Source: an uncultured Acidobacteriota bacterium
GTDB lineage: Bacteria; Acidobacteriota; Thermoanaerobaculia; Multivoradales; UBA5704
Direction: 5' to 3'
DNA length: 64,000 nucleotides
Assembly: GCA_963799925.1 (NCBI GenBank)
Contig: CAWCYZ010000002.1
Span: 2,064,477 to 2,128,476, forward strand
Positions 5,382 to 27,209 of this stretch are shown here, piece after piece. Position 1 is the first letter of the stretch, and each line of letters begins with the position of its first letter. The notes under the pieces were generated by a model, which saw only the letters and a program-made list of their open reading frames with translations, did no database searches and was not told the DNA's origin. Both the position numbers and the translations under genes were made by a program.

Positions 5382-6768
5382 CTACCCCGCGTACTTGAAC
5401 GCCGGACCGAGCTTCCTCGCGATGCGGTCGCGGATCCAGTGCGGGTCCCAGAACTCGACCGGGTTGACCGGCAGGCCGTCCAGGAGCAGGGTGAAGTGGA
5501 GGTGGTCGCCGCCGGCGAGGCCGGTCTGGCCCGAGCGGCCGAGCTCCTGGCTGCGCTCGACCGTGCTGCCCCTCGCGGACGCCGAGCGAGGAGAGGTGGC
5601 CGTAGAGGCTCATCAGGCCGTAGCCGTGGTCGATGACGACCGCGTTGCCGTAGATCCCGAAGAAGCGGGCGAGGAGGACGACGCCGCGGTTCGAGGCGAG
5701 CACGGCGTCGCGCTGCACCGAGGCCATGTCGAAGCCGAGGTGGGTCTGCTGGTCGACCGACTTCCCCTGGTAGACGTAGGTCCGGCGCTGGGCGAAGGCG
5801 GCGGTGATCTTGGCGTTGCGCATGGGGAGGAAAGGCTGGGTCCAGAGGAACGCGTGGGCCGACTTCGCCGCCAGGTCCTTCAGGTACTGGGCTTCCTTCT
5901 GGCGCAGGTCGCCGTTGATCTCGAGGAAGTTCTTGAGCACGTCCCCCTGGTCGCGCACCTCGGGGGTCTGCGACATGATCTCCGGCACGACCTTGTTGAG
6001 GAACGCGTCGGTGAGCTGGATGGTGTCGACCTTGATCGGCTTGGGGAAGAACTGGTCGACGAAGGAGATCGCCGCCTCGTTGCCCACGTCGTCGGCCGCC
6101 ACCAGCTTGACCGCCGAGGCGTCGCCGGTGTCCCAGGGCACCGCGTAGAAGGCGAAGCGCTGATGGGGATCGGGATTGCCCGGCAGCGGGAAGCCGGGGA
6201 AGAACCAGGTGCCCGAGCGCACGCCGTCGCGGATGGCGCTATCGCCCACCCGGTAGACGACCACCTCGCAGCCTCCCTGGGCGACGTAATGCTGGGTCGA
6301 GACGAGCCCCAGGGTCGGCGGCGCCAGGCGCACCGGCAGCTTCACCTCGGCGATCGCGGGCTCCGGCCGGCGCAGCCAGCTCCCCGCCCGCTCGGCGGTC
6401 GCCCGCACCGTCGCCTCGCCGCTGCGCAGACCCTTGACCGTGTCGCGCCCGACGTCGACCGTCAGCTCGCCGGCGGCGGCCTTCTTCCAGAACGCCCATG
6501 CCGGGTGGGTCGCGAAGCTCTTCTCGCCGACCGGCGTCACGTCCGCCCCCTGCACCAGCTCGACCCGCAGCTTCTCGACCCGGCCGGTGTCGCCGAGCCG
6601 CACGGTGATCGGCGTGCGGCGGCCGATCCCCTTGGCGGCGGGCTTGATCTCGACGCTGGGCGGCCCGCCCACCCAGAACGTGGTCACCACGGCGACCACG
6701 ACGATCACCAGCGCGGCGGCGAGCAGCACGCGCAAGAAACATCCCCCCGGATTGCGCTCTTGAACCAT
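5382..6768 (-). CDS. M23 family metallopeptidase with N-terminal membrane anchor (frameshift near 5570)
   Basis: HLGFDMA, YGNAVVIDHG, SLYGHLS; after a +1 shift it continues TVERSQELGRSGQTGLAGGDHLHF...KYAG* with TAG at 5382-5384. Confidence 0.85.
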
Positions 6769-17600: not shown

Positions 17601-18326
17601 CCCGGCGAGGGGCCGGGCGGCAACATCCTCTCCGAGGGGATGGCGCACTTCTCGACCATCCTGCTCACCGACCAGGTGCTGGGGCCGGCGGCGCGGATCG
17701 AGTTCTGCAAACGGATCGAGGAGAGCTACGGCAACGGCCGCCACGTCGACGCCGAGCGGCCGATGGTCAAGGTCAACGGCTCCCGCCAGGGCGACACGAC
17801 GGTCACCTACGACAAGGGCGGCTGGGTCATGTGGATGCTCCTCCAGCAGATGGGGCGCGAGCGGACGCTCGCCGGCCTGCGCGAGTTCATCGCCAGGTAC
17901 AAGGACGGCCCCGACTACCCCGTGCTCCAGGACCTGGTGGCCACCCTCCGGCCGTTCGCGGCGGACCCGGCGGCCTTCGACCGCTTCGTCCACCAATGGT
18001 TTTATGAGGTGGTCGTCCCCGAGTACCGGCTGGACCGGGCGAGCAAGCGCCGGCTGCCCGCCGGCGGGTGGCAGGCGACCGTGCGGGTGAAGAACGCCGG
18101 CACCGGGCGGATGCCGGTCGAGGTCGCCGCGGTGCGCGGCGAGCGCTTCGCCGCGAAGCCGAAGCCGGGAAGCGGGTACCTGGAGGCGCGGCGGACCGTC
18201 CTCTTGGGGGCGGGGGAGTCGACGACAGTCGACCTCACCTGCCCGTTCGAGCCCGAGCGCATCCTGGTCGATCCCGATGCCAGGGTGCTGCAGCTCTCGC
18301 GCAAGACGGCGCTCGTCCGTCTCTGA
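14688..18326 (+). CDS. ABC-2-type permease fused to an M1 family aminopeptidase
   Basis: Two multi-TM blocks followed by a soluble domain with HESAHQWWG...SEGMAHFS and YDKG. Confidence 0.88.
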   Translation: MSPAAAAPRRAAGRGDRFRAVSGMTLRHTLKRPLFWVLVVLLLLLVWGISNGNVSISSGDSTVGGKKAWLNSEFNLSFIVATLVSLIYAFFTSVAAGMSVIEDDEQRIAEIVAATPLTPAEYVWGKFLAVLGAFLGALGLQLLLMILFYQVVPNAAAAEIRGPFELANYLRPALAFALPTLVFFTGVAFYLGERFRRPILVFLFPVALLLINGFFLWEWSPTWLDPRINRLLMIADSSGFRWLNETWLKLDRGVDFLNHTPVRFDGTFVLNRLLFLGLGLAGVALAQRHYAHRVGRAGAARSARALRRAAVEVAAPAAALTPAERRLPAGRLAAGTMRQPGFWSTTLRVARGETRGLFSQVGLYIFIPLILIQTVGSNLLALGAFQTELLLTPGELAVRCLNTLTFLICLLLLFYTVESIERERTTGFAPVLYSTPLGSGPLLAGKALANSLVGAAVVGATLVGCLIALLVQGQVRLELWPFALVWGALLLPTFLLWTAFVTAVQALGGSRYLTYGVGLAALVFTLYRQLTGGMNWVGNWALWSVLRWSDMGVFEIDRRALLWNRLLALGLAALFWAIAVRAFRRRQSDAVSLADRFTARRVGRTALGLAPYAVVPAVAAIALGLAVFHGFQGGEAEKKERDYWKQNLGTWKDAPQPSLAAVDLDLTLDPAGRGFRDRGRYTLINDRDVPLERFALTGDVQWKNVRWSFAGKPYKPEDRSGLYVFTPPAPLPPGGRVEVGFDCRGTVPRGITRNGGGTSEFILPSGVVLTSFNPTFAPVVGYVPEIGIKKKENDYEPKEYADDFYLGKTRPAFGSSHSFPTRIRITGPAAYTYNSVGTLASDEVGHGRRTAVWVSDHPVRFFNVVGGRWLTRRGQGTQIFYHPAHAANVPEMLRTLDAARRYYSQWFYPFPWRELKLSEFPNLAGYAQGFPTDISFSEGIGFLTKSDVQTNAVFMVTAHESAHQWWGNILTPGEGPGGNILSEGMAHFSTILLTDQVLGPAARIEFCKRIEESYGNGRHVDAERPMVKVNGSRQGDTTVTYDKGGWVMWMLLQQMGRERTLAGLREFIARYKDGPDYPVLQDLVATLRPFAADPAAFDRFVHQWFYEVVVPEYRLDRASKRRLPAGGWQATVRVKNAGTGRMPVEVAAVRGERFAAKPKPGSGYLEARRTVLLGAGESTTVDLTCPFEPERILVDPDARVLQLSRKTALVRL

Positions 18327-18584
18327 GCCGGAAGGATCGAAAGTTTCCCCGCTGCAGGGCCGCAGCGCGGCCGTCGAGGCCAGCTACGGGGTGGGTGGCG
18401 ACCGATCGGTCACTCGCGCCGAGCTGCGTGCCATCGCCGCCGATCTCCGCGGCTACTGCGCCATGGTCGGCCGCTCGGCCCAGGAGCGCTCTCTGGATGA
18501 GCCAGATGACGCGCTGGCCCGGTTCGCCGGCAAGCTGGCCGACCTGTTGGCCGCGATTGTCGAGTCGATCGAGAGGAGGTTGTC

Positions 18585-18818
18585 ATGAATGGTGACCCGA
18601 CGAAGCGGATACGAAGGAAGCCAGACCCCGAGGAGTCGCGCATCGCCGGCCTGGCACTCTTGCGGCTACGCCGGCAGACCGGCATGACCGTGGGCCAGCT
18701 CTCCGCGCGATCGGGGCAACCGGTGGGCCGCCCTGAACCGATACGAGCAAGGCCAGTCCGTACCCCGAACGAAAGGAAGTCTCCGCCGCGTACCGGCTGC
18801 TCGGCCGCGGCATGCTGA
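18585..18818 (+). pseudogene. Probable truncated XRE-type HTH protein fragment
   Basis: RBS GAGGAGG; LALLRLRRQTGMTVGQLSARSG resembles the first helices of an XRE HTH, then loses similarity. Confidence 0.35.
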
Positions 18819-18976
18819 GAGCGCGGCGTAGCTGGTGACCTGATCGCGGCTCCGGCGGCCGGCGAGGCTCCCCCGATCGATATCCCGCCTGCCGCTCGGG
18901 CCGCGGTGCCTCACTATGAAGTCCCTCTACATACCCAAATACCGCGGCCTCCTCGGGCAGACCTTTGGCGTAGCAT

Positions 18977-19777
18977 TCATGGACTTTGAACGGTGAACTC
19001 GAGAACGTTTGAAGTCGAACCATCTGGGTTGGTCACCTGGGCTGTCCAGTTCGAACTGCCAACTCGAAGATTCGCCGTGATCTCGAATTTCTTGCAGGTT
19101 ATAAAGGTGGTGGAGTAGCGATATGCCGTCCCGCTCTGTGAAAGATCATAGAGGGTTACGAAGGCACCCTGGACGAGGTTTGCGCCGCCAAACGTGAGCG
19201 CGACCTGGTTGCCAGCTGGGGGGGGATCTGGCACAAGGCCAGCTAAGTAGGGCGTCCCACTGCACCGAGGGCTGAAATAGCCGTTGAGGTCCAGGATTAG
19301 ATGCACGCTACCGGTGCCCGCAATCTCAGGGCTGACAGTGAGGATACCGTTGCCATCCAGAGGCAAGATTGCATTGTTTGCGCGAGTCTGGCCGGTGCTG
19401 AAGTTAATGGTCGAGGTCAAGAAAGATGAGCAGTTAGGAGAGAAGCTCAGAAAGCCACCACCTGTGGGGCCAACAACCGTTATATTGAGCGAGATGGCTT
19501 CCGCCGCCGGAGGCAGACTGCAAGCGCCGACTAGGGCGAAGGAGCGAAGAGTCCCTGACGTCAAAGCCGGGCCAGCGAGAGGCCCTGGAGCATTCCGTGT
19601 GTCGACCAGACGGCAAGGCGGTACTGTGTAGAAGTCCTCCGCCGAGTTGTCGATCACACAGGTCTGAGCCGAGAGGCAGCGAGCCTGTCCCCCCGTGGCG
19701 AGGGCGACGGCCATTAGGGCCGCGATACCTCCCCGAAAGCTTGCGGCGGCGGCTGGGGCTAGGCGGTTGCCAGTCAT
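18977..19777 (-). CDS. Secreted protein with a PCRLVDTR...DLNGYF beta-sandwich-like module and an IPT/TIG-like C-terminal domain
   Basis: Signal peptide; PCRLVDTRN, SLNITVV, TSTINF, ANNAIL, HLILDLNGYF; C-terminal VTNPDG-TSN; lower GC than the flanks. Confidence 0.65.
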   Translation of the reverse strand: MTGNRLAPAAAASFRGGIAALMAVALATGGQARCLSAQTCVIDNSAEDFYTVPPCRLVDTRNAPGPLAGPALTSGTLRSFALVGACSLPPAAEAISLNITVVGPTGGGFLSFSPNCSSFLTSTINFSTGQTRANNAILPLDGNGILTVSPEIAGTGSVHLILDLNGYFSPRCSGTPYLAGLVPDPPPAGNQVALTFGGANLVQGAFVTLYDLSQSGTAYRYSTTFITCKKFEITANLRVGSSNWTAQVTNPDGSTSNVLEFTVQSP

Positions 19778-20052
19778 ATTAGCAGCTTAGTGTAGCACGA
19801 TGAGTTGGTGAGCCCTGATTTGCTCCGGTGGCGGCAATCTCAGTCCCCACCTCGGCGGTCGAGCCGATCCTGCCGGCCCTACCCGCCTAGCCCAACTTCC
19901 GCAGTTGTCGTCAGGCGAAGGCCCATTTTCAGGGGGCCGTCCGCTCTAAGCGCTTGATTTTTTGAGGCGGCGTTTGGAAAAGCGCGTGTAGTGCCGACCT
20001 GGCCTTGCCCCGGTTTCGCCGGACACCTCGAAAATGGGCGAGAGAGAACGCG

Positions 20053-20292
20053 ATATCCGAGACGAGACGGAAGTTCAGTCGAGAGTTCAAGTTAGAGAAG
20101 GTTCGGTTGGTGACGGCTGGCGGGCGCTGTATGGCGGCGACGGCTCGGGATCTCGAGGTTCGTCCCGACATGCTCCGTCGCTGGAAGCGTCAGCTGGAGG
20201 AGGATCCGGTGGAGGCGTTTCCCGGGAAAGAGAACCTGAAATCGGAGGAGGACCAGGTTTGCTGGTTGCAGCGGGAGCTCGTTCGCGTCAAG
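20053..20292 (+). pseudogene. IS3 family transposase OrfA fragment
   Basis: RRKFSREFKLEKVRLV...ARDLEVRPDMLRRWKRQ...AFPGK; start codon appears mutated (ATA); joined directly to Rhs sequence. Confidence 0.8.
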
Positions 20293-21916
20293 GTCGCCCA
20301 GGTGACGCACGGCAACGGCGTCGTCGACACGCAGGCGAACGACCCCAACGCGATGCGGCGGCCGCTGTCGATCGCCTCGACCATCAACAACGGCCAGACG
20401 ACGCTCTGGAAGACCGACGGCTACACCTACGACGGCGCCGGCAACATCACCCAGATCGGCGCCGCGCGCTTTCTCTACGACGGCGTGAGCCGGCTTGACC
20501 TCGGGGTCGCTGGTGCTGGGGACGCTCGACAGCGGGGCGGCAGCCAGCCAGACCTACGCCTACGACGCCTTCGGGAACATCCAGTCGATCGGCGGCACGG
20601 TCGCCCGCAACACGCCGACGAATTCGGCGACCAATCGCCTGAGCGGCGCCGCGAGCTACGATGCGGCGGGCAACCTGACCGCCTGGAACGGCGCGACCTA
20701 CGAGTACGATGCCTTGAACCAGATGAAGCACTACATCTCGGGAAGCGAAGAGTGGCTCTACATGTACGACGCCGACGACGAGCGCCTGTGGAGCTACAAG
20801 CCGGGAGTGCCCGGGGTCTCCGTCGCGCTTCGACCGCTGGACGATCCGCGACTTGGCCGGCAAGGTGCTCCGCACCTACGAGGCGAGCGGCTACAACTGG
20901 ACCGGGAGCGACGTCGAGGACCGCGTCTATCGCGACGGGCTGCTGCTGGCGGCCGAGCTACCCAACACCGGCGCCATCCATCATTTCCACCTGGATCACC
21001 TGGGAACCCCCCGCCTCATCACCGACCAGAACCGCGCCCAGGTCGCCTACCACGTCTACTATCCCTTCGGAGAAGAGGCGACGCCCTTCAACCAGGACGC
21101 CGAAAGGATGAAGTTCACCGGCCACGAGCGGGATCTGGCGAGCGCGGCGGGGGCGGGGGATGATCTGGACTACATGCATGAAAGATTCTTCAATCCGCTC
21201 AACTCACGTTTTGAAACCCTCGACCCCGTGCTTGGCGACCCGACTCTGCCACAGTCCTGGAACCGTTTTTCCTACGTATTGAACAACCCGCTTGAACTCA
21301 TCGATCCATCTGGCATGTCGGCTTCACCTCCACCAATCGGCGATTCACCCGTCGCTGATTATATCTATGCAGAGGGAATCTTTGCTTATGCTTCGCCTTG
21401 GAGGGGCACTACGAACGACCCTAATACGGGACTCGCTGGCCTTGCCAGTCTGATCGCAGCCCGCCGCCCGACAGGCGCCCCTGACCGCGATTTCGATCCT
21501 AATCAGCGGCTCGGCGGCTTTCTGGGCGCAGAGCGCTGTCGTTGTTTGGACAGGGACTTGCGGCTTATGCAGATGGCCTGATTCCGTTCTTCTCACCGCT
21601 TGAGGCCATAGGTGCTTACAACCCGCAAGAGGTGGGGATGACCTCTGTCAAGATTACGGGAGAGTTGGCGGGTACGGCTGCTGCCATTGCTGTCGGTCCT
21701 ATTCTCGCTGTCGAGGGTGCCGGACCAGGATCTGGGGCCACGGCTAGACTTGGCCGGTCACTCTTCGGTAAGGACGCTATACTGAATAGCAACCGTTATC
21801 TCAGGATAGGATACGGCCGAAGGGGTGGCGAGAAGGTCTTCCGTGTCGCAGGCGAGTTGGTGAGGCTCGTCGCAGAGAATGGGAAACTTGATATTTGGCG
21901 AATCGGCCCGCTCTGA
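20293..21916 (+). pseudogene. Orphan Rhs core fragment with C-terminal polymorphic toxin tip (several frameshifts)
   Basis: YD repeats (YTYDGAGN, YAYDAFGN, YDAAGN), HLDHLGTPR, YYPFGEE, KFTGHERD, WNRFSYVLNNPLELIDPSG (DPSG at 21303-21314), then a divergent lower-GC tip ending at 21916. Confidence 0.85.
20934..20992 (+). repeat. 59-bp direct repeat, copy 1 (inside the Rhs core)
   Basis: GACGGGCTGCTGCTGGCGGCCGAGCTACCCAACACCGGCGCCATCCATCATTTCCACCT, 56/59 identical to 22227-22285. Confidence 0.9.
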
Positions 21917-21934
21917 GCCGGATAGGAATCCAAC

Positions 21935-22228
21935 ATGACGGCGGGCCAACTAACTGAATTCCAGAAGCAGTGTCGGGAATCGATTGGGGGCATGCTGCAT
22001 GACTTGGGCCTTGCCGTGACATACAAGTTGGTGGAGGGGCTCCAGGGAAGTTACCTCATCGGCCGGGTGGAGCGCACCCGAAGCGAAATATACATATACG
22101 CTGACGAGGCAGGATTTTTTGTTGCCGGCAAATGGTTCGGCTACGAAACGCAGGATTTCCCGGATTCTACCGACCTAATTGCTCGTTTATCGCGGGATCT
22201 GAAGGATAAGCTCGAGCCGGAGCACTGA
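21935..22228 (+). CDS. Putative immunity protein for the Rhs toxin tip
   Basis: 97-aa lower-GC ORF immediately downstream of the toxin tip, RBS-like AGGA; assignment is positional. Confidence 0.65.
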   Translation: MTAGQLTEFQKQCRESIGGMLHDLGLAVTYKLVEGLQGSYLIGRVERTRSEIYIYADEAGFFVAGKWFGYETQDFPDSTDLIARLSRDLKDKLEPEH

Positions 22229-22285
22229 CGGGCTGCTGCTGGCGGCCGAGCTACCCAACACCGGCGCCACCCATCACTTTCACCT
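22227..22285 (+). repeat. 59-bp direct repeat, copy 2 (Rhs core scar after the immunity gene)
   Basis: Begins inside the immunity gene stop codon; three mismatches to copy 1. Confidence 0.9.
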
Positions 22286-22376
22286 CCGCCGGCGCCCGCT
22301 GCCTCCGCGCGGCCGTGGAGAACGACCCTGGCGCAAGCGACAAAAGCTATGTAGAATATTCTGAGGAGGAATCCCT

Positions 22377-22709
22377 GTGACAAAGACGATCCTTCGCTAC
22401 TCGTTCCTGGCGGTACTTTCCCTTCTCGTGATCGGGCCTGCGGCAGTGGCGGCCCAGGGGGACATTCGTCCTGCCTGCCCGCTGTTCCAATCGCAGGCCG
22501 ACGTCACCTCCTCGGCGGAGACACCTCTCTTCCTTCCAGATCGCCGCTCAGAGAGGGCAACTCTGATTTGCAGCTCGGTTTGCAGCCATGCCGATTGCCC
22601 CGGCTTACCCGTAGGAAGCCCCTGTGTCAGTCGTCTTGGTCAGCCGGGCACCTGCACGCTCAGCGGCAGAATATGTGGAGACGGTTCGCGACACTGCGGC
22701 TGCGTGTGA
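22377..22709 (+). CDS. Small secreted cysteine-rich peptide
   Basis: RBS GAGGAGG, GTG start, signal peptide (ending AVAA), C-terminal 8-Cys core ending HCGCV. Confidence 0.7.
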   Translation: MTKTILRYSFLAVLSLLVIGPAAVAAQGDIRPACPLFQSQADVTSSAETPLFLPDRRSERATLICSSVCSHADCPGLPVGSPCVSRLGQPGTCTLSGRICGDGSRHCGCV

Positions 22710-23049
22710 TCGCCGACGAGTCCACCACCTCCGAGCCGACCAGTTCGGCATCTCACTGCCAGCCACCTCAGCCGCCCGCGTCGCGGCTTCTGCAGCGGCC
22801 GCGGGACGGAGCCCCGCCGCCTGACTCGGCGAGCGCGCGCTCGGCTCGCCCGTGACATCCGTCTCGCTGGCGACGTCGCCGGCGGTGGAGGCCTCGCGGC
22901 GGAGCAGCGGCACGACGGGCTCGCCTCACGGCCGAGCTTCAGTGCGCTCGGGCTGCTCGCTTGCGCTTCGCCGGCGCGAGCGAGTGGTGAGAGTAATAGG
23001 GCTCCCGGATGGGTCAATCCAGCCGGGACGGATTGAGGTGGTCTCGAAC

Positions 23050-23576
23050 TGCAGAGGAAGTTCCAAGTGACCGAGCTAGACGCCTTCTGGAACGCCGACA
23101 TCACGTACGTTTGGACTGCGGAGGGCTGGCTCTACCTGGCTGTGTTGTTCGACCTGTTTTCGCGTCGAATCGTTGGCTGGGCAACCAACGATCGATTGAC
23201 CGAGCAGCTCGCTCTGTCGGCTCTGGAACAAGCGCTGGTACAGCGGCAGCCCAAGCCAGGCCTTCTCCATCACAGCGACCGTGGGAGCCAATATTCGAGC
23301 CGAAGGTATCGGCAGGAGCTGGCACTCCGTGGTATTGCAGTCAGCATGAGTCGGCGCGGCAATTGCTGGGACAATGCACGTGGCGGAGAGCTTCTTCAGC
23401 TCGCTCAAGACGGAGCTTTCTTAGCAGGTGAACCTGTGCCTCCAACCCGCGACGCTGCACGGCAGGCGCTCTTCGAGTACATCGAGGTGTTCTACAACCG
23501 CAAGCGTCGCCATTCGACCCTTGGCTACATGAGTCCGGTTCGCTTAGAGGAGAATTGGAGGCTTCTCCATGCGTAG
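23050..23576 (+). pseudogene. IS3 family transposase OrfB (rve integrase) C-terminal fragment, frameshifted
   Basis: WNADITY, LYLAVLFDLFSRRIVGW, HHSDRGSQY, SMSRRGNCWDNA, YIEVFYNRKRRHSTLGY. Confidence 0.9.
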
Positions 23577-23590
23577 GCCAGGCCCGCCGC

Positions 23591-23679
23591 GCTATGGAAA
23601 CTGCCGGTTCTGCGGAAATCGTTGCACGATTTCCGCAGCCCCTTGGAAAACGCTGCGCGTTTCCCACAGTTGCCACAGC
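23591..23679. other. Multi-stem structured element between the orfB stop and the IS right end
   Basis: Closing stem 23591-23603/23667-23679; perfect 12-bp hairpin CTGCGGAAATCG-TTGCA-CGATTTCCGCAG (23610-23638); second hairpin TGGAAAACGC-TGC-GCGTTTCCCA. Confidence 0.6.
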
Positions 23680-23821
23680 GCCTACGACGAGGAGTCCCAA
23701 CACAGGTGTCAGCCGAACCGGGGCAGGGTCACTCCCGCCCCAGCGCGGCCGCAGCGCCGCGCCCGCGGCGCTGGACGGGAGGCTGAAGGTTTGATGGGTC
23801 GGCTACGATCGGGCGAGCGCC

Positions 23822-23855
23822 AAGAAAAACGGCGCCGGGCGGGAGCCCGGCGCCG
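23822..23855 (-). terminator. Rho-independent terminator of the 23884-24339 gene
   Basis: 11-bp perfect stem CGGCGCCGGGC/GCCCGGCGCCG, 4-nt loop, followed on the minus strand by TTTTTCTT. Confidence 0.8.
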
Positions 23856-23883
23856 GAGAGATAGAGGGAGGGAGGCGGATGGG

Positions 23884-24339
23884 CTACGGCTGGGCGGCCT
23901 TGGCGAGCTGCTCCTTGGCCGCGGCGAGGGCCGCTTCGGCGTCGGCCATCGCCTTGGCCTGGGTCGCCGCCGCCGCCGCTTTCTCCGCCTTCTCGGCGGT
24001 GCTCAGCCGCTTCGCGCGGGTGACCCGCGGCCGCGGGTTGACGCCGAACTCGAGCAGCCGCTCGCTCTGTGAGCCGAGGGTGAGCTTGAGGCCGGTCGCC
24101 AGACGGCTGCGCAGCGTGCGGCCCTGAGCGGCGATGGTATAGCGCTGCTGGTTGACGTCGCGCAGGTTGGCCTTGTGGAGGTCCTGCTGGCTCTCCAGGG
24201 CGTGCGCCTGCGTGACGACGGCGTCGAGGGCGGCGTAGTCGGCCGCGAGGGCCGGCATGTCGGTCAGATGGGGCTTCAGGTTCTCGACCAGCGACTGCCA
24301 GTCGGTCAGGTTGTCTTTGAAGCTCTGCGGTTGACTCAT
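23884..24339 (-). CDS. Hypothetical helical/coiled-coil protein
   Basis: 151 aa, RBS AAGGAG, high-GC3 codon usage, own terminator; LLEFGVNP motif followed by a basic/Ala-rich tail. Confidence 0.75.
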   Translation of the reverse strand: MSQPQSFKDNLTDWQSLVENLKPHLTDMPALAADYAALDAVVTQAHALESQQDLHKANLRDVNQQRYTIAAQGRTLRSRLATGLKLTLGSQSERLLEFGVNPRPRVTRAKRLSTAEKAEKAAAAATQAKAMADAEAALAAAKEQLAKAAQP

Positions 24340-24938
24340 GGTGTCGCTCCTTTCCCCGCGAAGGGGAAGGTTGCGGCCCCAGCGTGGATCCGTGGGTTAG
24401 CTGGAGGCCAAGGTTGAACGTCTGCTTCCGCGGAGGGCGCGCCTGAGGCACTCGGCCAGAGAGCCCAGACCTCGCCCGACCTGCTTCACCCCGCGAGACC
24501 ACTACCGCCGGTCTGCCCGAGGTTCCTGCCCCTGCATGCCGCCACGGCTGGCTTGGCGTCGGCGAACGCCCGAGACGAGATGATCCACTCAATGTGGAAC
24601 GGCTTCTCGATTCCGTGACGGTAATTCCACCACGTCGTGGCGGAACACTGCCTACGTCCACTTCTTTCTCTATAGGTGCCTCCCCATGGCGATCCATGGC
24701 ATGATTGCCGCCGATCGATGGCGCATATGCTCCACGAACCTCTTGCTCCTGTCAAGAGTGTCGCAAGCGGAGAAGGCGAATCGTGCAGCGACGTCCCACG
24801 GCTCCGGCAGACTGCCACCCCGGTCCTTCCATGAGAAGGCCAGAAAGCAAGCCGCTTTGGCAGATCGCCGCTGAAGTCTGTGTCTACGTCCGAAAGGCAA
24901 GCGGGCACCGCTTCGTCGTCTGGCGAGACGGCGAGGAG

Positions 24939-25270
24939 GGAAATATCGAATGTTCGCTCTATGCAGCGAGCGTCCAGAGGAAATATCGAACGTTTCGTCC
25001 TTGCAGCGAGCGTCACAGAGGAAATGTCGAGAGTTTCGTCGTTGCAGCGAGCGTACAGAGGAAGAATCGAGCGCACTCCTCGTGCAGCCGCCGCAGAGGG
25101 GAAATATCGAGTGTTTCTCCTCAGGCAGCGAGCGCAGGGACGAGATAACGGATGTTTCCCCTTGGCAGCCGTTGCAGCGAGGAAACATCGGATCCTTCCT
25201 CGCGACGAGCGATTCTTCCGCTCTACGCCGAATCTTTCCGCTTTACGCCGGACACTTCAGCCTACCGCCG
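24939..25270. repeat. Degenerate tandem array: seven 40/41-bp units followed by three ~20-bp units
   Basis: Units start at 24939, 24979, 25020, 25060, 25100, 25141, 25181 with consensus GGAAATATCGA-NN-GTTTC-N(4-5)-TGCAGCGAGCG; then units resembling TCTTCCGCTCTACGCCG at about 25212-25270. Confidence 0.8.
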
Positions 25271-25305
25271 CGCCTCCTTCGCCGATTCTTCACGGCGGCG
25301 GGCTC

Positions 25306-25515
25306 TCAAGCGGGGGTGTAGGGATAGACGCCCTTGATCCGGGTGTTCAGGAACCGTCCGGCCGAGTCGGCGTGCAGCAGCTCCTCGTAACGCCGGGGCG
25401 GAACGCCGAGATACCGGTAGATGCGCCCGCCGTGGAACTCCACCTCGAGGACGCGGTGGGAAGGGTCGTAACCGATGCTCGCAAGGCTCGTGGAGTCGAT
25501 CGGGGCACGTCGCAA
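25306..25515 (-). CDS. KTSC domain-containing protein
   Basis: RBS GAGGAGG, TTG start; STSLASIGYDPSHRVLEVEFHGGRIYRYLGVP...ADSAGRFLNTRIKG. Confidence 0.9.
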   Translation of the reverse strand: MRRAPIDSTSLASIGYDPSHRVLEVEFHGGRIYRYLGVPPRRYEELLHADSAGRFLNTRIKGVYPYTPA

Positions 25516-25721
25516 GGAGATCCCTCCTCGCGATAAGGATACCTCAAGGCGGAACTTATGTGGAGCCCAGCGGATTTTCGGCCATCCGATCGTGGCGAGA
25601 AGCGCCCGGCCGTTGCCTCCGATCGCACCAGGATCTTCCTCGATGCCTGAATCGAGGATAGAAGTTGCTGGATTTGGCAACCCTCTGGTTCGCCGCCCTG
25701 GCGGCCGGCTGCGGAAGGCGC

Positions 25722-27209
<1,488 letters not shown>

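Follow-up and report, generated by a model that had tools for sequence, protein, structure and literature searches.

Probable remains of an IS3 element joined to an orphan Rhs toxin-immunity module in a variable island of a soil acidobacterium

How does an Rhs toxin tip with its putative immunity gene come to lie between the two ends of an insertion sequence (IS), and can these ends still move it? The question is raised by positions 20000 to 23731 of a 64-kb stretch of the genome of an uncultured soil acidobacterium (assembly GCA_963799925.1), which is called the window throughout. At this locus terminal inverted repeats and transposase gene fragments of an IS3-family element enclose the 3' end of an rhs gene, a toxin tip, a putative immunity gene and a Cys-rich open reading frame (ORF). 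Weighing the anatomy, the junctions and the searches in related genomes, we regard it as probable that the structure is an immobile IS3 relic, left by one element or by two, and that it was joined to an orphan Rhs toxin-immunity module of the ordinary kind within a variable island.

IS3 ends around an orphan Rhs module

A preliminary description of the locus, made from the letters alone, had reported matching TG...CA inverted repeats, a fusion of orfA in frame to Rhs sequence at 20292/20293, an orfB resuming near 23050, about 2.7 kb of cargo (Rhs, immunity ORF, Cys-rich ORF) in place of the transposase middle, and the lack of a target-site duplication. These points were borne out by homology to intact relatives of the IS and to a full-length rhs gene of the same genome, with slightly revised limits for the repeats. 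The following features were delimited.

20000-20028, plus strand: left terminal inverted repeat (IRL), which aligns with the IRL of the intact elements in genomes G006 and G420
20005-20293, plus strand: orfA' fragment (HTH_Tnp_1) with ATA as start codon at 20053-20055, last approximately 18 codons gone
20292-21180, plus strand: 3' fragment of an Rhs core, fused in frame to orfA', with 862 of 889 aligned columns equal to C1:665312-666198 of the same genome
21181-21916, plus strand: divergent core end with a PxxxxDPxG-type motif (21282-21317), followed by the toxin tip; the homology to contig C1 stops at 21180
21935-22228, plus strand: putative cognate immunity gene, 97 residues
22227-22285, plus strand: second Rhs core remnant, 59 nt, a direct repeat of 20934-20992
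22377-22709, plus strand: Cys-rich ORF of 110 residues with a signal-peptide-like N-terminus, an orphan
22710-23044, no strand: filler rich in guanine and cytosine (GC, 71-73%), no assignment
23045-23576, plus strand: orfB' fragment (rve/DDE), aligned with orfB of G006 and G420, approximately 114 N-terminal codons gone
23704-23731, minus strand: right terminal inverted repeat (IRR), for which the intact relatives have homologous ends

The pattern TGRCCYTGCCCCGGTT was found at exactly two sites in the window, 20000-20015 on the plus strand and 23716-23731 on the minus strand, with a chance expectation of 0.01 and two matches in none of 100 shuffled sequences. Read by eye, the two repeat arms carry TG...CA ends and are equal in 24 of 29 aligned columns, with 4 mismatches and 1 gap. 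The translation of 20005-20292 matched HTH_Tnp_1 of Pfam (E 1.5e-14) and the translation of 23067-23576 the rve integrase core (Pfam, E 1.2e-24); within orfB' a stretch over the conserved ESFF..LK motif departs from the frame, with breaks near 23390-23420. Intact relatives were identified, namely a 1378-nt element in G006, whose OrfB matches the NCBIfam IS3 family transposase model NF033516 at 4e-110, and a 1384-nt element in G420 (locus L087), which is 83-85% identical. Both of their orfA genes read ATG where the window has ATA. In the comparison with the G420 element, IS positions 1-305 are kept up to window position 20293, positions 702-1384 are kept from 23045 onward, and positions 306-701 are gone. 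The pieces kept are the first 293 nt and the last 687 nt of the element of about 1384 nt; about 396 nt were lost and about 2751 nt of cargo are found instead. Of the hallmarks of the IS3 family, the TG...CA repeats are present, an HTH-type orfA and a DDE-type orfB are present as fragments only, and a complete element of about 1.2-1.5 kb with intact transposase is absent. Since the orfA start codon is ATA and 396 nt are gone, the IS is dead. A 3-bp target duplication is also absent at this unit, with the left flank ending in ACC and the right flank starting with CTC.

The Rhs part of the cargo is 97% identical (862/889) to the 3' core of an intact rhs gene of 1790 residues on contig C1, and it gave Pfam matches to RHS_repeat and RHS and a match to Rhs_assc_core (E 2.6e-13). 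It departs from the C1 gene by single-base insertions near 20494 and near 20821 and by 25 substitutions, 19 of them synonymous and 6 nonsynonymous; the ratio of nonsynonymous to synonymous substitution rates (dN/dS) is 0.09. The core is under purifying selection. Given this ratio, and because substitutions are more reliable here than insertions or deletions, the fragment either diverged within a working gene or was kept similar by recombination.

The tip region, which shows frame changes near 21497-21530, belongs to a recurrent group of C-terminal sequences. For its C-terminal 124 residues 148 relatives were found at E<=1e-3 and 20 at E<=1e-10, and in most of them the match lay at or close to the C-terminal end of the protein. 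RHS repeats were detected in 7 of 12 relatives scanned, and no Pfam family covered the tip in any of the 12. A search of 401 genomes of the class yielded a match in 10, with 57% as the best identity; in G010 an unbroken frame of 1698 residues closes with a tip of 57% identity. The locus search with the short tip alignment returned a single locus. Directly downstream of the tip homologue a homologue of the 97-residue ORF (36-40% identity, E about 1e-15) was found at three of ten loci (L030, L031, L032), and a 63%-identical relative is present in JGI data. The protein itself matched no family in Pfam or NCBIfam, and a search against genome contigs gave no relative. As the adjacency of both genes is kept at 3 of 10 loci, tip and 97-residue ORF represent a credible candidate for a toxin-immunity pair.

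The second core remnant begins at the stop codon of the putative immunity gene and is 95% identical to 20934-20992 and 98% identical to C1:665952-666011. The two 59-nt repeats, 20934-20992 and 22227-22285, bracket a unit of 1293 nt consisting of core end, tip and immunity gene. Judged from the sequence, such a pair of repeats would be left behind when a circular tip module integrates by one crossover. C-terminal displacement by recombination at core sequences, as described in PMC2935791, predicts a core stub after the immunity gene. Such an origin fits here, since a core stub directly follows the immunity gene as in the model.

A core 3' fragment, a motif and a variable tip with an adjoining putative immunity gene are what defines an orphan module, and all were found; a full-length rhs gene does not adjoin, the closest copy being that on contig C1. 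The Rhs piece would thus fit an ordinary orphan module generated by C-terminal displacement. With the orphan Rhs tips described by Jackson et al. (2009; PMC2935791) and with the Salmonella orphan rhs (PMC7043789) it shares core fragment, motif, tip, immunity gene and stub, and the core fragment is also near-identical to the resident full-length rhs. In contrast to the orphan tips in PMC2935791, it lies on another contig than the full-length rhs, it is located inside IS remains and its 5' end is fused to orfA'.

Little can be assigned in the remaining cargo. The sole match of the Cys-rich ORF was its own near-identical copy on a 5396-nt contig described below, no Pfam or NCBIfam family was found for it, and the Atlas offered no informative look-alike (best score 0.76). 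Apart from one weak 69-nt match, the filler at 22710-23044 had no copy in the genome. A promoter and terminator scan of 19700-23900 gave nothing above shuffled expectation inside the element.

The left junction and an independent copy

The homology to the IS reaches 20293, while the homology to the full-length rhs of the genome begins at 20292. The junction therefore lies at 20292/20293 with a 2-nt overlap (GG) and no longer homology, and orfA' and Rhs share one frame across the joint. A misassembly at this very position had been named as a possible objection. This was answered by four proteins of a public collection, whose source is an ENA contig of 5396 nt or several contigs of this length. 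There, the 92-residue tip ORF is identical to that of the window, and the Cys-rich ORF is equal in 109 of 110 residues. A protein of 56 residues agrees with the immunity protein over its first 37 residues and then changes frame. Finally, a 394-residue protein with HTH_Tnp_1 switches from orfA' to Rhs sequence at exactly the residue where the window does, as judged by eye. By the same kind of reading it agrees with the window in 59 of 60 residues of orfA', in 24 of the first 31 Rhs residues and in 37 of 37 residues at the tip start. Because the orfA'/Rhs fusion recurs on an independent contig, a misassembly does not account for the left junction; it is real and older than the split of two non-identical genomes.

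In the second copy the core segment diverged, by eye, far more than the neighbouring IS part and the tip. A divergent core beside near-identical neighbours is expected if each copy was homogenised with the rhs gene of its own host. When the whole fusion protein of the second contig, which reads through several frames, was used as query, the best score was obtained for an rhs fragment of G001. The ORFs flanking the unit in the window had no exact match in the protein collection, a result which is uninformative on the flanks of the second contig.

The reading frames of the window have to be treated with caution. In the comparison with the same-genus genome G001, 32 of its ORFs were matched in the window, 10 of them in more than one frame. 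Isolated single-base insertions or deletions were located in conserved genes at 5565, 27772, 29708, 45971, 46202, 46720, 47033 and 47761. Most of these are extra bases in the window assembly at non-homopolymer sites, and 22 isolated 1-nt differences of this type were counted in 17,777 well-aligned bases. They fit the 84.6% completeness, estimated by marker genes, of this assembly of 6 contigs. The Rhs fragment has three frame breaks and orfB' has two; a reading of these as pseudogene decay was considered and rejected, since conserved genes carry single-base insertions of the same kind; it is also undercut by the 5396-nt contig, which breaks the frame at places other than the window does. As frameshifts in the assembly are unreliable, we make no claim of decay for the Rhs fragment or orfB', and frameshifts in this assembly should not be taken as gene decay in general.

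Mobility and history of the unit

Searches for the means and traces of movement were negative. Using tblastn with the window fragments and with full-length OrfA and OrfB of G006, no IS3-family transposase was found in the 6.2-Mb assembly; the full-length queries gave only the window locus and one remnant of 34 residues. The cargo has no second copy in the genome. A 22-mer across the left junction matched one metagenome and one genome contig, both over 23 nt only and with no further homology, as expected by chance. Searches by DNA in 31 relatives, with the tip in 401 genomes of the class and with the fusion protein in 92 genomes of the family detected no near-identical copy. A 20-mer of the IRL occurred at 4 loci among genome contigs, of which only L018 holds a relative of the IS while the other 3 match over the 20-mer alone.

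Intact IS3 copies, which the preliminary description proposed to look for in the genome, did not turn up; besides the 34-residue remnant, the other traces of the same IS are relics. A 92-nt mini-element with IRL and IRR (C1:391439-391530) is composed of the first approximately 38 and the last approximately 54 nt of the IS, shows no target duplication and lies approximately 0.8 kb upstream of a fragmented rhs start (C1:385885-390637, minus strand). A lone left end (C4:917141-917174) and a lone right end of 265 nt (C1:57360-57624) reside on different contigs, and their outer flanks, GTC and the complement, fit one 3-bp duplication, as if derived from one split copy. Considering the mini-element without duplication and the lone ends which resemble a split copy, copies of this IS were evidently rearranged repeatedly in the genome.

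We infer the following order of events and present function. The internal 396 nt would have been lost as the IS joined a piece of an Rhs locus by illegitimate recombination. This piece would have comprised 889 nt from the 3' end of the core, a tip of the recurrent C-terminal family and its cognate immunity gene, with the 59-nt stub of a previous core, the secreted-type Cys-rich ORF and the filler completing the cargo. The immunity gene may protect against this tip when it is delivered by kin. The 889-nt core may serve as a substrate of homologous recombination by which the tip could be swapped onto a resident rhs, and the IS ends would be incidental to these functions. Both IS fragments are collinear with the intact relative of 1384 nt and have no part in common. 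If a single IS captured a fragment, one event that made two illegitimate joints is enough, but the absence of a duplication must then be explained separately.

Several points weigh against an immobile relic. One of the three intact relatives has no perfect duplication itself (flanks GTC/GTC in G420, TAG/TAG in G006, AGC/CGC in the third), so the argument from the missing duplication is somewhat weakened. At 84.6% completeness a transposase copy could be missing from the assembly. The pair of inverted repeats is intact and correctly oriented, and mobilisation in trans is therefore possible in principle. The fusion shared with a second non-identical genome could reflect spread and not descent. 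Finally, as frameshifts are unreliable here, the Rhs fragment and orfB' may be either intact or broken.

Two separate IS3 copies had been suggested as one origin of the unit. They would have flanked part of an Rhs locus, and two independent deletions would have removed their inner parts together with adjacent DNA. We consider this history unlikely. The missing duplication follows naturally when the ends belong to separate insertions, and this part of the suggestion stood; the one-ended relics with GTC flanks likewise show that IS copies were broken internally before. However, at least four events are needed, two insertions and two internal deletions. The parts kept (1-305 and 702-1384) are complementary and non-overlapping, which is automatic for a single element with internal replacement, and the halves share no overlap over which their divergence could be compared. 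The need for two separate deletions counts against two copies, and this origin is inseparable from capture by a single IS; both histories give an immobile scar.

The other suggestion had been a non-autonomous IS3 derivative, in effect a mobile insertion cassette of 3.7 kb bounded by inverted repeats, which is, or was until recently, moved by OrfAB in trans and would carry tip and immunity gene from genome to genome. Its repeats are intact with TG...CA ends in the right orientation, far beyond chance, and intact relatives with 83-85% identity exist in the same bacterial family. The same fusion is found on a second non-identical contig with, by eye, a near-identical IS part and tip start and a different core. 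Cassettes of such kind are known for effector genes elsewhere, with MIC231 of Bacillus cereus and the TnXax1-derived effector cassettes in Xanthomonas as examples (PMC4337579). The window unit resembles them in having passenger genes between IS-type repeats and no working transposase of its own. Nevertheless, all testable features were negative. The cassettes of PMC4337579 have target duplications, several copies or sites and a cognate transposase. Here the unit shows no duplication, the assembly yielded no cognate IS3-family transposase, and one copy is present in the genome, a second being that of the 5396-nt contig; the junction 22-mer gave the two chance matches only and no near-identical copy was detected by DNA or protein in the sets of 31, 401 or 92 related genomes. 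In further difference to these cassettes, the window unit keeps remnants of both transposase genes, which points to an accident rather than to a streamlined cassette. Taken together, we judge such a cassette improbable. The same degree of doubt applies to an extension of it, in which an IS3-type cassette would ferry the tip and immunity gene between strains, and the core would then be homogenised with the rhs of the new host, readying the tip for capture. This would explain why the two copies have the same fusion, near-identical IS part and tip, and different cores.

A chimeric join at 20292 or near 23045 is very improbable: the assembly contains many single-base errors and the left junction coincides with the edge of the 889-nt repeat, but the independent 5396-nt contig spans the same fusion and encodes the tip and the Cys-rich ORF as well as part of the immunity protein, and differences from the C1 copy are spread over the entire Rhs copy of the window, which is therefore a separate copy.

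A hairpin module at the right end and the surrounding island

Two further features concern the right end of the IS and the setting of the whole unit.

23588-23688, plus strand: three-hairpin module of approximately 100 nt between the orfB stop and the IRR, recognised by fold, covariation and recurrence
18327-25309, no strand: low-GC island of 7 kb, strain-specific by comparison with three relatives and by GC content, which contains the whole structure

The module folds as a three-way junction (z = -2.8) and matched nothing in Rfam. An exact 25-mer from it, GGAAAACGCTGCGCGTTTCCCACAG (window 23645-23669), was found at 47 sites in 45 loci, all of them in metagenome-assembled genomes of Acidobacteriota. 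The module is also present at C1:57404-57502 of the own genome (G000) and at loci L039-L113. Among 24 same-strand ORFs just upstream of 25-mer sites, 10 were IS21 IstB and 3 were IS3 transposases. The rest were one each of IS256, IS66, IS481-like, BrxL and ABC-ATPase-like, and 6 had no family. Two helices covary among 16 sequences. A search with a covariance model gave matches in 32 of 61 related genomes, a single genome having as many as 18 copies, and among 25 matches the third helix covaries as well, for instance with AU:20/CG:5 and AU:15/GC:5/UA:3. All three helices share the base motif CUGUGGAA/UUCCCACAG. These comparisons argue for a predicted structured non-coding module which is common to unrelated IS families of Acidobacteriota and follows the final transposition gene, ahead of the right IS end. 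One literature search listed no account of it; the nearest parallel in that listing is a small RNA gene downstream of an IS110-family transposase (PMC12288879). The module of the IS right end merits a study of its own.

The island has a GC content of 55-66%, compared to approximately 68-78% outside. In the relatives G001, G002 and G009 the end of the peptidase gene and the KTSC/sigma-54 activator genes are only 0.8-1.5 kb apart, and no part of 18327-25309 was found between these flanking genes in any of the three. The IS-ended unit sits in this strain-specific island and is inherited with it.

Other repeated sequences share the island. Window positions 23823-24829 hold a member of a gene family with a 151-residue ORF (23884-24339, minus strand) and no Pfam match; the segment is 93% identical to C4:111802-112816, with other paralogues at 66-81% in the own genome and in G001. 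A dispersed repeat of 74 nt (24815-24888) has five further copies with 90-94% identity on contigs C1, C2 and C4. Beside it lies a tandem array of 40-nt units with approximately 4.9 copies (24939-25136), which has kin elsewhere in the genome. An Rfam scan of 18000-26000 (E<=1) produced one sub-threshold match only, which is unrelated.

In E. coli, IS copies and fragments accumulate in Rhs loci, as known for the H-rpt elements. Loci of the H-rpt type differ from the window, where the Rhs fragment lies inside IS ends instead of an IS inside an Rhs locus, and where the IS is of the IS3 family. A related arrangement was observed in G028, whose genome belongs to the same order but to a different family. 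Its locus L026 (G028:C3:376000-395999) is an Rhs orphan array with at least 6 C-terminal core fragments on one strand, and a short core fragment is arranged head-to-head with an IS3 orfB which lacks its 5' part and starts near residue 103. As this array also holds a truncated IS3 orfB, IS debris in Rhs loci is not special to the window genome.

If the unit did move as a cassette, IS ends would offer polymorphic-toxin tips a way to spread that does not depend on Rhs loci, but the evidence speaks against it. In this soil acidobacterium the structure looks like a fixed recombination scar and not like a new way of spreading toxins, and it adds a further case in which variable islands have accumulated orphan Rhs modules together with IS debris.

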